This document shows, one piece after another, positions 22,989 to 58,989 of a stretch of 64,000 nucleotides of DNA. Source of the stretch: Octopus vulgaris (taxonomy: Eukaryota). Both the position numbers and the translations under genes were made by a program. The DNA lies in the NCBI GenBank assembly GCA_951406725.2, contig OX597833.1, forward strand, positions 73,346,001 through 73,410,000, given 5' to 3'. Each line of letters opens with the position of its first letter. Positions within the stretch are counted from its first letter, which is position 1. The notes under the pieces are model-generated. The model was not told the origin of the DNA, searched no databases, and saw only the letters and a program-made list of their open reading frames with translations.

Positions 22989-23036
22989 ATCTCTGATGAA
23001 GGGATATCTATAATATCCCAGAAACAGATGTAAGAC
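22989..23036 (+). ncRNA. Type I hammerhead ribozyme (Penelope-type, short near-palindromic stem III)
   Basis: tct-CTGATGA-a-gggata/tatccc-a-GAAAC-agat-GTA-aga. Predicted cleavage after 23032. Confidence 0.8.
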
Positions 23037-23989
23037 TAACAACCTCTTTATAAATATCCTATGAATTCCACATAGCCTTGGTTTTGTTGTTTCATTTTAT
23101 GTAACACACACACATATATACAGAGAGAGAGGGGGGAGAAAGAGAGAAAGAGAAAGAAAGAAAGAGAGAGAGAGAAAGAGAGAGAGAGAGAGAGAGAGAG
23201 AGAGAGAGAGAGAGAGAGAGAGAGAGAGAGATACACGCCTACACACACAGTTGAACAAATATTTCTATTTTATAGTTTTTGTTTTAGCAAAGTAACTCTG
23301 CTTCCTCGAATTCAATAGGTTGTGTTTGAAACAGAATATTTTGAATCACTTCACGCAGTCACATTATCTCAGAAAATTTGTTTGTGGTTGTGACGTTTAG
23401 AATGTATTCTATTAATAACAGTAAGTTATAACAGAGTCAGTAAGTTGTATACGATATATAACATCAAAGAATTAATAAAAATTGTGTAATCAGACAACTT
23501 CATTTCATAACACATACATATGTAAAACTTTTTCATAAACATTATTTAGCAGTTCAGACACAGTAGTATAATAAGTATGTAAATGTGTAAATGCATAGGT
23601 AACTGAATCGGTAGATAACTGAATGAACAATATTAATAGGTTGTATTTATTTACGAGATTTTCCGGTTTATTATATATTATCATTGATTTCATTAGGCAT
23701 TAGTTAGCCGTTTATCTATAAACATATTTACATATCTATGTACTCTATCTAATGCATTGCGTTCTTTATCTGATAACGCTTGTTATAAATAAAATTCATT
23801 TCAATATCTCTTATAATTCTTACATTACTATAAGTAATTGTATAGATTTTATGTGTATATGTTTTGTATTATACTGTCTGTATTACTAAAAAATTGTTTA
23901 TCAAGCAGTATTACGTCAGCGTCTTTTACTTAACATGAAATTACGTCGTTTGATTACACAGACAGTTTGTAATTATTGGTATGATATAA

Positions 23990-24390
23990 AGGCGGCGAGA
24001 TGGCAGAAACGTTAGCACGCGGGCGAAAATGCTTACCGGTATTTCGTCTGCCGTTACGTTGTGAGTTCAAATTCCGCCGAGGTCGACTTTGCCTTTCATC
24101 CTTTAGGTGTCGATTAAATAAGTACCAGTTACGCACTGGGGGTTGATGTAATCGACTTAATCCGTTTGCCTGTCCTTGTTTGTCCTCTCTGTATTTAGCC
24201 CCTTGTGTGTAGTAAAGAAATAAGTATTTCGTCTGTCTTTACTTTCTGTGTTCAAATTCTGCCGAGGTCGACTTTGCCTTTCATCCTTTTCCGCCGATAA
24301 ATTAAGTACCAGTTGCGTACTGGGGTCGATCGAATCCACTGGCCCCTCCCCACAAAATTACGGGCATTGTGCCTGGAGTAGAAAAGAATT
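23990..24390 (+). mobile_element. tRNA-derived SINE, family B (Meta-domain-like, internally duplicated)
   Basis: Head ggcggcgagatggcagaaacgttagc, B-box gagttcaaattcc, and gcctttcatcc...gtcgat..aagtaccagt present twice. Confidence 0.85.
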
Positions 24391-24547
24391 ATTGACATGA
24401 TATATTGTGAAGAAATTTTTTGACTGCTCAGAATCAAATTCACTCTAAATGTTGAAGCAGAAATATTCCGAAATAATTCAACTTTGTGTTCACAGGCTCA
24501 CACTGTCCTGTATGGAGAAATGTGTGCGTATACCCGAAATATAAAAT

Positions 24548-24840
24548 TCCAGTTGATTCGATCAACGCAGCAGCCTGCTTGTGAAGTTAACGTGCAAGTG
24601 GCTGAGCACTCCACACAAACGTGTACCTTTAACGTAATTCTCAGGAAGATTCAGCGTGACACAAGGAGTGACAAAGTTGGCCCTTAAAATTACATGTACC
24701 ACTAATTTTTGCCAGTTCAGTGGGCTGGAGCAACGTAAAATAAAGTATCTTGCTACAGGACGCAATGCGCCGCTGGTTTTCGAACTCACAACCTTACGAT
24801 TGTGATCGGAATATTCTGACCATAACCACACACCTTCACA
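24548..24840 (-). mobile_element. tRNA-derived SINE (family C-like head, different body)
   Basis: Minus-strand head gtgaaggtgtgtggttatggtc...gagttcgaaaacc, followed by agcaagatactttattttacgttgctccag as in the 19347 copy. Confidence 0.75.
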
Positions 24841-25009
24841 TACCCTCACACACATATATTCACGTATATATGTATGTGTATATATATATATATATATATA
24901 TATATATATATATATATATATATATATATATTTATATATATATTTATATATATATATATATATATATATATATATATATATATATATTTATTTATTTATT
25001 TATTTATTT

Positions 25010-25502
25010 AAGTAGTTGAATGAATTATCTTAGTATGGATAATTCGGTTAACCGATACCTGGGTAGCAAATTCACGTCAGAAAAACACGGTTGAAGCTAC
25101 ATGCCAAGGGCAGAGATCACGTACTTTCGTGTGGAAATTTGTGTGTTTTTTTAATACAAATAAATGAAAGAATGGAGTTGAACGACGATTTAACAAAATT
25201 CCTTTATTCTCAACATATGTTTCGAAGGCTGCATATTCCTAATTTCGAAGGAATAAGGGGTGCATTATGCCGCCTTCTCCCACACGGAGCCCATAGCGAT
25301 TATCGCTATGGGCTCTGTGTGGGCAGTCATCTAAAAGTTTTTGTTCATCTTGATGCTGACATAAGTTCCTTGTTTTTCCTGATGAGAAGGCGGCATAATG
25401 CATCCCTTATTCCTTCGAAATTAGGAATATGCAGCCTTCGAAACATATGTCGAGAATAAAGGAATTTTGTTAAATCGTTGTTCAACTCCATTCTTTCATT
25501 TA
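25010..25502. mobile_element. Fold-back hammerhead element (Penelope-like pLTR derivative)
   Basis: Inverted arms 25161-25279 / 25384-25502, a nested 22-bp hairpin at 25279-25323, and a one-sided tail 25010-25160 homologous (reversed) to 35425-35570. Confidence 0.8.
25374..25456 (+). ncRNA. Type I hammerhead ribozyme with extended stem II
   Basis: ttttc-CTGATGA-gaaggcggcata...tatgcagccttc-GAAAC-atat-GTC-gagaa. Predicted cleavage after 25451. Confidence 0.85.
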
Positions 25503-25549
25503 TATATATATATGTTCAACTCCATTCTTTCATTTATATATATACACAT

Positions 25550-56848: not shown

Positions 56849-56893
56849 TCTTAGAAGTAATAATTACTCGTTGAGTAATTATTACTTCTAAGA
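56849..56893. repeat. Perfect 21-bp hairpin within a rearranged hammerhead element
   Basis: tcttagaagtaataattactc-gtt-gagtaattattacttctaaga. Flanks are homologous to 58885-59017. Confidence 0.85.
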
Positions 56894-57179
56894 AGCTGCT
56901 AGGTAAGAAGCATATGTAGCCAGAATTTTACCTGCTCTATTCTCTCAATTTAGACTTTTATTCACATTCATAGCAATCCTAGTTGCTAACTGTGAGCTGT
57001 AAATCGAGCTTCGATATGAGAAAACCTTCTGCGTTAATAAATAATGATTGTTCCTGAAAGGTGTCCTTTTACAGCTACTACGGATCCTTGGATCCTTGAA
57101 ATTTACAATTACACACACACATGCACCATGTGGAAAATATTCCACCAATTTTATCCAAATGATATCGGTATTATGTTTA

Positions 57180-57435
57180 TAATTCAGCCATGACTAGAAC
57201 CCCGTGCAATGCATCTCCTACAAAGATCGCGATCACATCACATAAGAACATTGCGACACAATTTCTGCACTGCAAATGGACCTGCTCTTTTCAATGTTAT
57301 CACGAAGGAAATTAAAGTAGAAAAAGAACCCACAACTTTTAAACGGTACCTGGACAAATTCCTCCAGGAAATACTGGATAAACCACCTACACCTGGATAC
57401 GTCTCAACCAACAACTCTCTGCTTGAGTTAGTTAT
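57180..57435 (+). mobile_element. CR1/L2-group LINE 3' fragment
   Basis: FCTANGPALFNVI...FKRYLDKFLQEILDKPPTPGY parallels GPQLFNIL...FKSKLDIFLSRVPDEP of the 26-28 kb LINE. Confidence 0.7.
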
Positions 57436-57788
57436 GGCCTGGACCGATAATAGTCGAAACCAATCTAAGTTATCTAAATTATATATATACAGATACATAT
57501 GTATTATATATATATAAACACAGATACACATGTACTATATATATATAAACACAGGTACATATATATGACATATAGAATCACAGATACAAATATATATATA
57601 TATAAACACAGATACATACATACATATATGTATATATATGTATATATATATATATGTATGTATGTATGTATGTATGTATGTATGTATGTATGTATATATA
57701 TATATATATATATATATATATATATATGTATGTGTGTGTGTGTGTGTGTGTGTGTGTGTGTGTGTGTGTGTGTGTGTGTGTGTGTGTG

Positions 57789-57835
57789 CTAGCAGAGATA
57801 CCCGGTATTGCTCTGGATTAAAATGGCATAGTTTG
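57789..57835 (+). mobile_element. Helentron/HINE-like terminal segment
   Basis: ctagcagagatacccggtattgctctggattaaaatggcatagttt, homologous to 16017. Confidence 0.5.
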
Positions 57836-58916
57836 TATATAATATATTATAATTATATTGAAACAGGTGATTTGGGAAAGTGCAGCACTGACAACAAAAC
57901 ATTTGTGGAATAAATGCTTGGCTAATTCAACTAAGCAACATGCTATGCGTTTGTTTGGAGTATTTCAGGCCTTAACCTGTCATGGAAAATTTGCTGATCT
58001 TGAGAAAATCACATCTCTCTTCAGACTCTTGCCTTCGGTTTTCTACCATCCTCCTTGCTTTATACTTGTTTCTGGAGAGATTACGTCTTTTCTGTGTTTC
58101 TGCCGCCCATTCCGTAAAACTTTATTTGAAGAGATCAGAAATTGAATGAAGAGAAAGCGAAAAGAACAGAGAAAGAAAGGGAAAGATGTATGTACGCATA
58201 TATGAAATGGGCGTGTGTGTGCATGTGTGTGTGTCAGCGTGCGTGCGCGTATGTGTGTGAGAGAGAAAGTGAGCGAAAAAGAAAGAGAGAGTGAGTGAGT
58301 GAAGGTGTGTGTCGTGATGGTCGATGTCTTTTAAGGCACACACATAGAAAATGTGACGTCATCGCATAACATATTTACGATAGTTGATTTATGGAAAAGA
58401 TTACAAAGTTAAATTTTTGAAATGCAAATATGTGAATGGAAATTTTGTTTAATTTGTAGCCGAAATAGTACTGAATCTTTTGATACCACATACGTGAAAA
58501 TCGGTAACTCGGTTTTGGAATGCATAAGGAAAATATATATATAGGACAGACTTCTTTCAACCTGAAAGTATTATCTCACATTCCAATATAGACGTAATTC
58601 TGAAATAGTGTTAGATATAATAGATTGCACTGGGCTCGCATTAGGCAAGAAGTTGGAAATTTTTTTGGCCCATGACACTGCATGGACCTTGGCTTTTATA
58701 TTTGGCGACTGTTACTTTTTATGTATATGTGTATGTATGAGCCAATGAGAGAGACCTCTACATAGTAGCTAGACCTGGTAGAAATAGCAGCCAAATCTCC
58801 CTCAAAACACCCTAATGTATATACTCGGGATCATCGGTGGATACCGTATATTTATATACGATATTATTTGTGAGGCATATTAATGATAACGTAACTTGCA
58901 TATAACTAAGCTATAT

Positions 58917-58989
58917 TCGGCCTGATGAGTTGCTTGTGGGGTAACTATTACTTCTGAGAATCTGCTAACTAAGAAACATATGTAACCGG
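58917..58989 (+). ncRNA. Hammerhead ribozyme, partially decayed stems
   Basis: tcggc-CTGATGA-gttgc...gctaactaa-GAAAC-atat-GTA-accgg. Confidence 0.62.

Follow-up and report, generated by a model that had tools for sequence, protein, structure and literature searches.

Hammerhead-bearing fold-back elements in an Octopus vulgaris contig

The DNA analyzed here is a window of 64,000 nucleotides (nt) from Octopus vulgaris (GenBank assembly GCA_951406725.2, contig OX597833.1, positions 73,346,001 to 73,410,000 of the forward strand), in which a dense set of inverted duplications, or fold-back elements, carries hammerhead ribozymes, or pieces of them, of the kind found at the ends of Penelope-like elements (PLEs). 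All coordinates are those of the 64-kb window, and the region under study is 22989-58989. The window has 38% G+C and is repeat-rich, with microsatellites, dispersed repeats resembling short interspersed nuclear elements (SINEs), and remnants of long interspersed nuclear element (LINE) reverse transcriptases and of mariner. A preliminary description, made from the sequence alone, had reported that the ribozyme or its 3′ half is duplicated in inverted orientation at six places. Self-comparison of the window showed all six inverted duplications, at 25.0, 35.0, 36.7, 45.5, 51.2-52.6, and 54.0-55.7 kb, and likewise the reported 29.1-kb palindrome that lacks a ribozyme, which is 88% identical to the 36.7-kb copy. 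The seven fold-backs, each spanning both strands, are as follows.

25011..25500, both strands: fold-back B (25.0 kb), arms 96% identical; tail 25011-~25162 and short tailed copy (-), cut where stem II begins and without the core; hairpin 25279-25323 at the junction; untailed copy (+), the longer of the two, carrying complete hammerhead 25374-25456
29089..29229, both strands: fold-back G29 (29.1 kb), 68-nt palindrome and ~70-nt tail; both copies end short of the ribozyme; same family as G36
35042..35569, both strands: fold-back C (35.0 kb), arms 99% identical, (TA)n on both sides, 75% identical to B; untailed copy 35042-35248 (-) with hammerhead 35181-35096; tailed copy 35249-35569 (+) with hammerhead 35278-35363, predicted cleavage after 35357, tail ~35418-35569
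36656..36877, both strands: fold-back G36 (36.7 kb), ~72-nt tail 36656-36727 and palindrome of 150 nt; on the - strand, minimal hammerhead 36795-36758 with a U4C core; + arm with mutated GAAA
45516..45917, both strands: fold-back D (45.5 kb), older; arms aligned with gaps over 205 columns at 68% identity; damage in both ribozymes
51195..52578, both strands: fold-back E (51.2 kb), ~128-nt tail 51195-51322, arms 97% identical; tailed copy (-) carrying complete hammerhead 51442-51354, with ~1.05 kb upstream that is unpaired; untailed copy 52484-52578 (+) short, its truncation lying within stem II
54016..55712, both strands: fold-back F (54.0 kb), long palindrome centered at ~54553-54606; arms identical at 228/230 positions in the inner region (54322-54838), 120/138 with gaps in the middle, and 113/119 in the outer part; + ribozyme with ~600 nt of (ATT/ATC)n expanded within stem II, in that arm only; - ribozyme with mutated core

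The motif GAAAC-(4-nt palindrome)-GTH occurs 12 times in the window, 11 of them within 22989-58989, whereas 200 shuffled versions of the unmasked sequence gave a mean of 0.3 and a maximum of 5; the dozen or so motifs first reported are thus present. Whole ribozymes make up only a part of these 12. A full type-I hammerhead descriptor, requiring the core, stems I and II of at least 3 each, and a palindromic stem III, returned eight complete hammerheads (+22993, +25379, +35284, -35175, -36791 with a U4C core, +46203, -51437, and +59541), seven of which lie within 22989-58989. The same descriptor found a mean of 0.055 and a maximum of 1 in the shuffles, none of the 200 reaching 8, and a relaxed version added one more hammerhead, at +34275. 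The stem III palindrome is 6-7 nt in these ribozymes, several of which carry long stem II inserts (~50-60 nt). At the 36.7-kb copy, both the core at 36791 (-) and the mirrored + core have C instead of U at core position 4, and therefore the change was already in the template. None of the 149 Rfam matches to the window at E≤1 was to a hammerhead family; they were microsatellite or hairpin artifacts. In a comparison of the 25- and 35-kb subfamilies, 96% of stem cells were paired, against 39-45% in slid controls, with one compensatory pair; with only four sequences, this covariation was not significant relative to shuffles (84/500). Self-comparison sorted the hammerhead-bearing pieces into about nine families, where at least five unrelated ones had been proposed. 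The motifs in 22989-58989 were confirmed as hammerheads at the level of prediction.

Only fold-back C has two complete cores. In the 25- and 51-kb fold-backs one arm is cut inside the ribozyme, and in those at 36.7, 45.5, and 54 kb one or both ribozymes are mutated or split by a microsatellite. Every inverted pair is arranged head-to-head, with the ribozyme reading outward, toward a microsatellite. The one-sided tails and flanking (TA)n that had been described are clear in five of the seven fold-backs (25.0 kb, ~152 nt; 35.0 kb, ~152 nt; 36.7 kb, ~72 nt; 29.1 kb, ~70 nt; 51.2 kb, ~128 nt), which adjoin (TA)n except at the tail end of the 25.0-kb element, where there is a TA-rich run instead; at 45.5 and 54.0 kb the tail is ambiguous. 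Tail length is constant per family, ~152 nt in both B and C and ~70-72 nt in both G copies. The tailed copy is the shorter one in B and C and the longer one in E.

This arrangement bears on whether the palindromes could be DNA transposons resembling miniature inverted-repeat transposable elements (MITEs), or replication errors made after insertion, with the hammerheads as passengers. TA-flanked palindromes do resemble MITEs, and central deletion or conversion is plausible, the inner arms of F being more alike than the outer ones. But the ends are asymmetric, with a tail on one side that has a constant length per family, and the pairs are always head-to-head, with the same layout in several unrelated hammerhead families, so that we find this origin hardly credible. 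The inner versus middle arm identities of F fit either two different templates followed by fill-in or later conversion near the center.

Fold-back junctions differ from copy to copy

Two families have two fold-back copies in the window, B versus C and the 29.1- versus the 36.7-kb copy, and in both the outer ends and tails are alike and the centers differ. We next compared contigs of four public sequencing runs (X1, X2, X6, and X14) with fold-back C as the reference. At least 13 other fold-back junctions of family B/C were found, in contigs of three runs, and the 13 listed (12 listed joints, less one internal 32-nt skip from 35311 to 35344, plus two from a second listing) are all different. The length retained varies from 6 to 207 nt in the untailed copy and from 30 to 241 nt in the tailed copy, independently of each other. 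None of the 13 retains two complete ribozymes, and eight have none. Several joints contain extra letters, and one is a short fold-back hairpin resembling that of B. At least 28 contigs (6, 20, and 2 in X1, X2, and X14) depart from the reference at 35248, which is C's own junction, and go on in other upstream sequence; therefore, C represents a truncated version of something longer.

In the preliminary description, the elements might be a fixed, non-autonomous hairpin family, a proposal at odds with inversion junctions that differ in 13 of 13 listed contig cases and in both in-window comparisons. Breakpoints that vary between copies were the outcome that this description had itself named as pointing to ordinary truncated Penelope insertions. 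The palindrome is better explained as a by-product of each insertion than as an inherited unit. Specifically, we interpret the elements as heavily 5′-truncated insertions of several endonuclease-bearing, hammerhead-carrying PLE families, a reading to which we assign a probability of roughly 0.8. The PLE origin and the involvement of a reverse transcriptase and GIY-YIG endonuclease machinery, both suggested earlier, are supported.

A model for the insertions

Insertion would begin with a PLE protein that nicks and extends both strands of an AT-rich or (TA)n target. Such activity is described for the lizard PAc protein, which in vitro cuts and extends both strands of AT-rich DNA (PMC11167929). 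In the experiments reported there, PAc reverse transcription starts at two internal sites, the interval between them corresponding to the tail, and ribozyme cleavage is dispensable for insertion in vitro. In the octopus elements, reverse transcription from two fixed RNA sites 3′ of the ribozyme would likewise yield one tailed and one untailed complementary DNA (cDNA); in B and C, the two outer ends do lie at the same places. The cDNAs would then terminate prematurely, each at a random point of its own, and become joined head-to-head through microhomology or a short fold-back fill-in, a joining chemistry that we infer. Such independent early stops and joins would account for the variable junctions and for the small hairpins found at them. 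Since the hammerhead lies near the RNA 3′ end, it would be captured twice, once, or never, depending on truncation length. The parent element probably would use its ribozyme as a dimer, formed through the self-complementary stem III on tandem transcripts, by analogy with the hammerheads of PMC4209133.

The short copies may thus be read as a fossil record of the PLE mechanism, with two fixed outer ends, independent cDNA truncation, and small fold-back joints, features that fit the two-start-site, both-strand priming of PAc in vitro.

Ribozyme folding within the fold-backs

Equilibrium folding of the isolated B and C ribozymes gave a stem II probability of ~0.9 and a weak stem I, and the 36.7- and 51.4-kb motifs folded poorly as ribozymes even in isolation. 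When the upstream antisense arm was added, ribozyme stem probabilities fell to 1e-17 or below in five of five cases, in a calculation that concerns equilibrium and not kinetics. In the same model, the ribozyme stems are lost with the antisense arm already present at the moment the ribozyme is completed. A read-through transcript of a fold-back copy is therefore computed to have its ribozyme locked in double-stranded RNA, so that fold-back copies would be dead ends and likely ADAR substrates.

These data also address an alternative in which fixed palindromic ribozyme elements are transcribed as units, cleave themselves on both strands into hairpin or circular RNAs, and are re-inserted in the manner of retrozymes. 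Copy C, with two intact ribozyme arms that are 99% identical, and the layout and tail length common to B and C would suit such elements. Against them stand the differing junctions, two complete cores in just one of the six named pairs, and the near-zero stem probabilities computed with the antisense arm. Moreover, no strand of a fold-back has more than one sense ribozyme, which leaves no monomer to excise, and published animal retrozymes are same-strand tandem repeats in the account of PMC7229834. Self-comparison of the window showed no same-strand hammerhead-bearing tandem unit, only inverted pairs and distant copies. Whichever strand is read, transcription reaches the antisense arm before the ribozyme, and at most one sense ribozyme is present per strand; a dimeric ribozyme therefore cannot form in cis, nor can a monomer be excised, and this removes a retrozyme-like cycle. 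We consider fixed self-cleaving elements very improbable, and the earlier suggestion of self-cleavage from either strand into discrete RNAs is not supported.

Link to Penelope-like open reading frames

The first description found no protein-coding capacity. For the short copies this held, as none of 127 stop-free fragments around the elements reached the Pfam cut-off, but a GIY-YIG remnant had been overlooked. This remnant and the hammerhead downstream of it are as follows.

33286..33615, +: remnant of the C-terminal GIY-YIG endonuclease from a Penelope-like (Neptune-like) open reading frame (ORF); one in-frame stop; 5′-truncated at (TC)n
34272..34311, +: slightly decayed type-I hammerhead; its element reaches ~34538, then (CA)n/(TA)n

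The hammerhead at 34275 is on the same strand, ~650 nt downstream of the remnant. A HMMER protein search with the GIY-YIG piece found relatives, one of them an O. vulgaris protein with 53% identity over 32 residues; a word-based protein search gave seven candidates, none significant. When 223 PLE proteins (tblastn) and two hidden Markov models were compared with the window, the only significant matches were at the 33.3-kb remnant. Pfam analysis of 115 further fragments revealed no PLE domain, the GIY-YIG remnant included, and only LINE reverse transcriptase and mariner domains; these fragments were 114 of 157 listed plus the GIY-YIG piece, with SINE-like, low-complexity, and overlapping fragments excluded and 1-5.6 kb, mostly tandem repeat, covered in part. 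In these searches of the window, a link to a Penelope-like ORF was thus obtained for the 33.3-34.5-kb copy and for none of the six fold-back families. A CX2-5CxxC linker was seen by eye in three relatives of the remnant (P0032, P0005, and P0148); the remnant itself starts after the linker. The parent elements are most likely of the Neptune type, which targets microsatellites.

Among 51 PLE-ORF loci from metagenomes, many of them short contigs, 12 carry a comparable hammerhead, type I and with a palindromic stem III, mostly on the ORF strand. Compared with the window as DNA, these loci gave one 33-nt match, at the GIY-YIG remnant, and an exact 21-nt tail motif had no match in the metagenome contigs. 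Opposite-strand hammerhead pairs also stand beside PLE ORFs in two of these metagenome loci, at L022:3738-3855 and L024:3826-4853.

Decayed GIY-YIG-like motifs were also seen at 52028-51918 (-) and 58523-58567 (+), 400-600 nt upstream of same-strand hammerheads. Their scores lie within those of reversed and shuffled controls, and they are not counted as evidence of an ORF.

Evidence against truncated insertions and a short-template alternative

Several results weigh against truncated insertions of full PLEs. The tails are 70-152 nt, compared to 30-40 in the published description. The search with 223 PLE proteins and two hidden Markov models tied no ORF to the six fold-back families, and the candidate GIY-YIG motifs that precede the ribozymes at 51.4 and 58.9 kb scored 5.3 and 3.0 bits, with controls up to 8.5; the loose ends of the contigs give a view of 30 letters each. 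The short side of the contig joints is only 21-32 letters, and part of the joints could be later deletions of palindrome centers. In addition, the untailed copy ends within ~25 nt (35233-35256) in B, in C, and in 4 of the 13 listed contig junctions; this clustering may reflect a preferred 5′ end or an effect of what reference C can show.

Such a preferred end would be expected if the template were a short master RNA, a few hundred bases long and lacking an ORF (a non-autonomous mini-PLE, consisting of a solo pseudo-long terminal repeat [pLTR]), that an autonomous PLE mobilizes in trans, with the palindrome again made anew at each insertion. No ORF is linked to family B/C, which is very abundant in the contigs, its summed depth being very high in DNA-like runs (a measure of depth, not of copy number). 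Non-autonomous PLE derivatives are known, in the accounts of MRC1 (PMC8557442) and of retrozymes (bioRxiv 10.64898/2026.07.22.740005). However, at least 28 contigs extend upstream of 35248, and junctions whose left side lies further upstream are invisible on reference C, so the clustering of ends may be an artifact. Other families of the window extend 0.35-1 kb upstream, one of them including an ORF remnant. We therefore regard a short master RNA as unlikely and retain the truncation of longer PLEs as our preferred explanation.

Comparison with known elements

The layout, of which the preliminary description knew no account as a family in cephalopods, is published for PLEs (PMC4209133, PMC8557442, and PMC3846280); we found no paper on fold-back ribozyme layouts in cephalopods, although repeat databases and supplements may hold these families. 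PMC8557442 describes a PLE inverted 5′-truncated copy with a 30-40-bp tail at one end and a (TA)n bias, PMC3846280 describes head-to-head inverted pLTRs with palindromes at the junction, and PMC8969392 treats inverted pLTRs, together with 3′ extensions, as routine in curation. The octopus elements share with truncated insertions of PLEs with a C-terminal endonuclease (Penelope/Poseidon, Neptune, and Hydra; PMC8557442, PMC3846280, and PMC11167929) the head-to-head inverted 5′-truncated copy, the tail at one end, the junction hairpins, the microsatellite or (TA)n target, the pLTR hammerhead, and, in a longer copy, a GIY-YIG remnant upstream. Unlike the insertions described in those accounts, they have tails of 70-152 nt, which widen the known PLE range, long stem II inserts, and, in most copies, too little length for an ORF.

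As ribozymes, they resemble the minimal hammerheads (min-HHR) of Cervera and de la Pena (2014, PMC4209133), which are type I, with a short stem I, a larger stem II, and a small palindromic stem III, and occur singly or as opposite-strand pairs. According to that account, such hammerheads are found across animals, mostly single and ascribed to truncated PLEs, some forming opposite-strand pairs 100-700 bp apart, with weak, dimer-dependent cleavage. The octopus motifs, which we know from sequence, differ from them in a stem III palindrome of 6-7 nt and in one family with a U4C core. With animal non-LTR retrozymes they have in common a non-coding sequence of a few hundred bases, a type-I hammerhead, and an origin from PLE pLTRs, but whereas retrozymes are described as pLTR-derived same-strand tandems that release monomers and circles (PMC7229834 and bioRxiv 10.64898/2026.07.22.740005), the present elements are inverted, of variable length, and predicted to release no monomer. 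The Octopus Naiad PLEs (Naiad_Obim and Naiad_Ovul, PMC8557442 supplement) are similar in (TA)n preference, inverted copies, and tails, but are described as lacking canonical hammerheads and as having their endonuclease at the N terminus; none of five short motifs taken from the window had a match among the sequences listed in that supplement. For cephalopods, PMC13282606 reports 31 recently active Penelope-like families in O. vulgaris, its main text being silent on hammerheads, and PMC6962438 reports 235 hammerhead-1 loci in giant squid. Recognition of these dense PLE stumps would improve annotation, as they are easily mis-called as MITEs, unknown repeats, or microRNA-like hairpins.

A hint of adenosine-to-inosine editing

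In the contig comparison, A>G differences from the reference occurred at 17 places in X6, a run guessed to be RNA, and at 4, 7, and 7 places in the other three runs, whereas T>C differences were level (5 in X6 versus 4, 5, and 4). Among 40 of the 73 rows of differences, seven A>G changes at 35357-35401 were found only in X6, on one or two contigs, as were one T>G and one G>A. The seven include position 35357, the cleavage-site A. A G at the cleavage-site base of a hammerhead blocks cleavage. The data give a weak hint of adenosine-to-inosine (A-to-I) hyper-editing of the C hairpin, including its cleavage base; a divergent genomic copy is the alternative explanation. The X6 cluster fits the link between octopus hyper-editing and abundant near-perfect double-stranded RNA described in PMC5625713, where a lizard Penelope is named as a heavily edited repeat. 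If the hint holds, perfect double-stranded RNA would have a concrete source, the fold-backs, in animals that edit very highly. Taken further, at least one family might spread from a short ORF-less mini-PLE RNA with two reverse transcription start sites 70-150 nt apart, making a new fold-back at each landing; thousands of such hairpins would be a major source of coleoid A-to-I hyper-editing, and editing of the cleavage base, together with the duplex, would silence the captured ribozyme. This extended scenario is speculative, and we think it rather doubtful as a whole.

Other features of the window

Hammerhead-bearing ends and their relatives outside the fold-backs are as follows.

22990..23103, +: single pLTR 3′ end with type-I hammerhead (core 22993, weak stem I); ends at (CA)n; a loose relative of the 45.5-kb copy
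37845..38021, -: decayed relative (72%) of the 46.2-kb hammerhead end; not folded back
46142..46327, +: pLTR end with minimal hammerhead 46199-46233; ends in a microsatellite
46491-46619, -: decayed relative facing the 46142..46327 end
56808..56954, +: relative (74%) of the 58.9-kb end; core replaced by a 45-nt local fold-back, 56849-56893
58880..59024, +: pLTR end with core 58922, palindromic stem III, and weak stem I, not matched by the full descriptor; (CA)n at its end
59535..59640, +: element with complete hammerhead 59535-59622, just beyond 22989-58989; ends at (TA)n

Two further decayed hammerhead-like ends were seen, one at 55792 (-), facing the right arm of the 54-kb fold-back, and one at 28742 (+), directly after the LINE at 28.6 kb. 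That LINE remnant (26050-28615, +) has an RVT_1 match and a weak endonuclease match; other RVT_1 LINE remnants lie at 1-720 (+), 16312-16872 (-), 40126-40936 (-), and 44741-45196 (-). A mariner-type transposase remnant with HTH_48 and Transposase_1 matches and one stop occupies 21117-22166 (+). The sequences 50261-50349 and 51058-51148 form an inward-facing inverted pair (77% identity), flanked by (TA)n and ~0.9 kb apart with a SINE-like fragment inside, and resemble a DNA element with terminal inverted repeats, not a PLE end. Finally, a long tandem array of short ACC/AAC-rich units at ~1100-5800, in which several phases stay open over long stretches (Thr-rich and Pro-rich translations), is probably a minisatellite.

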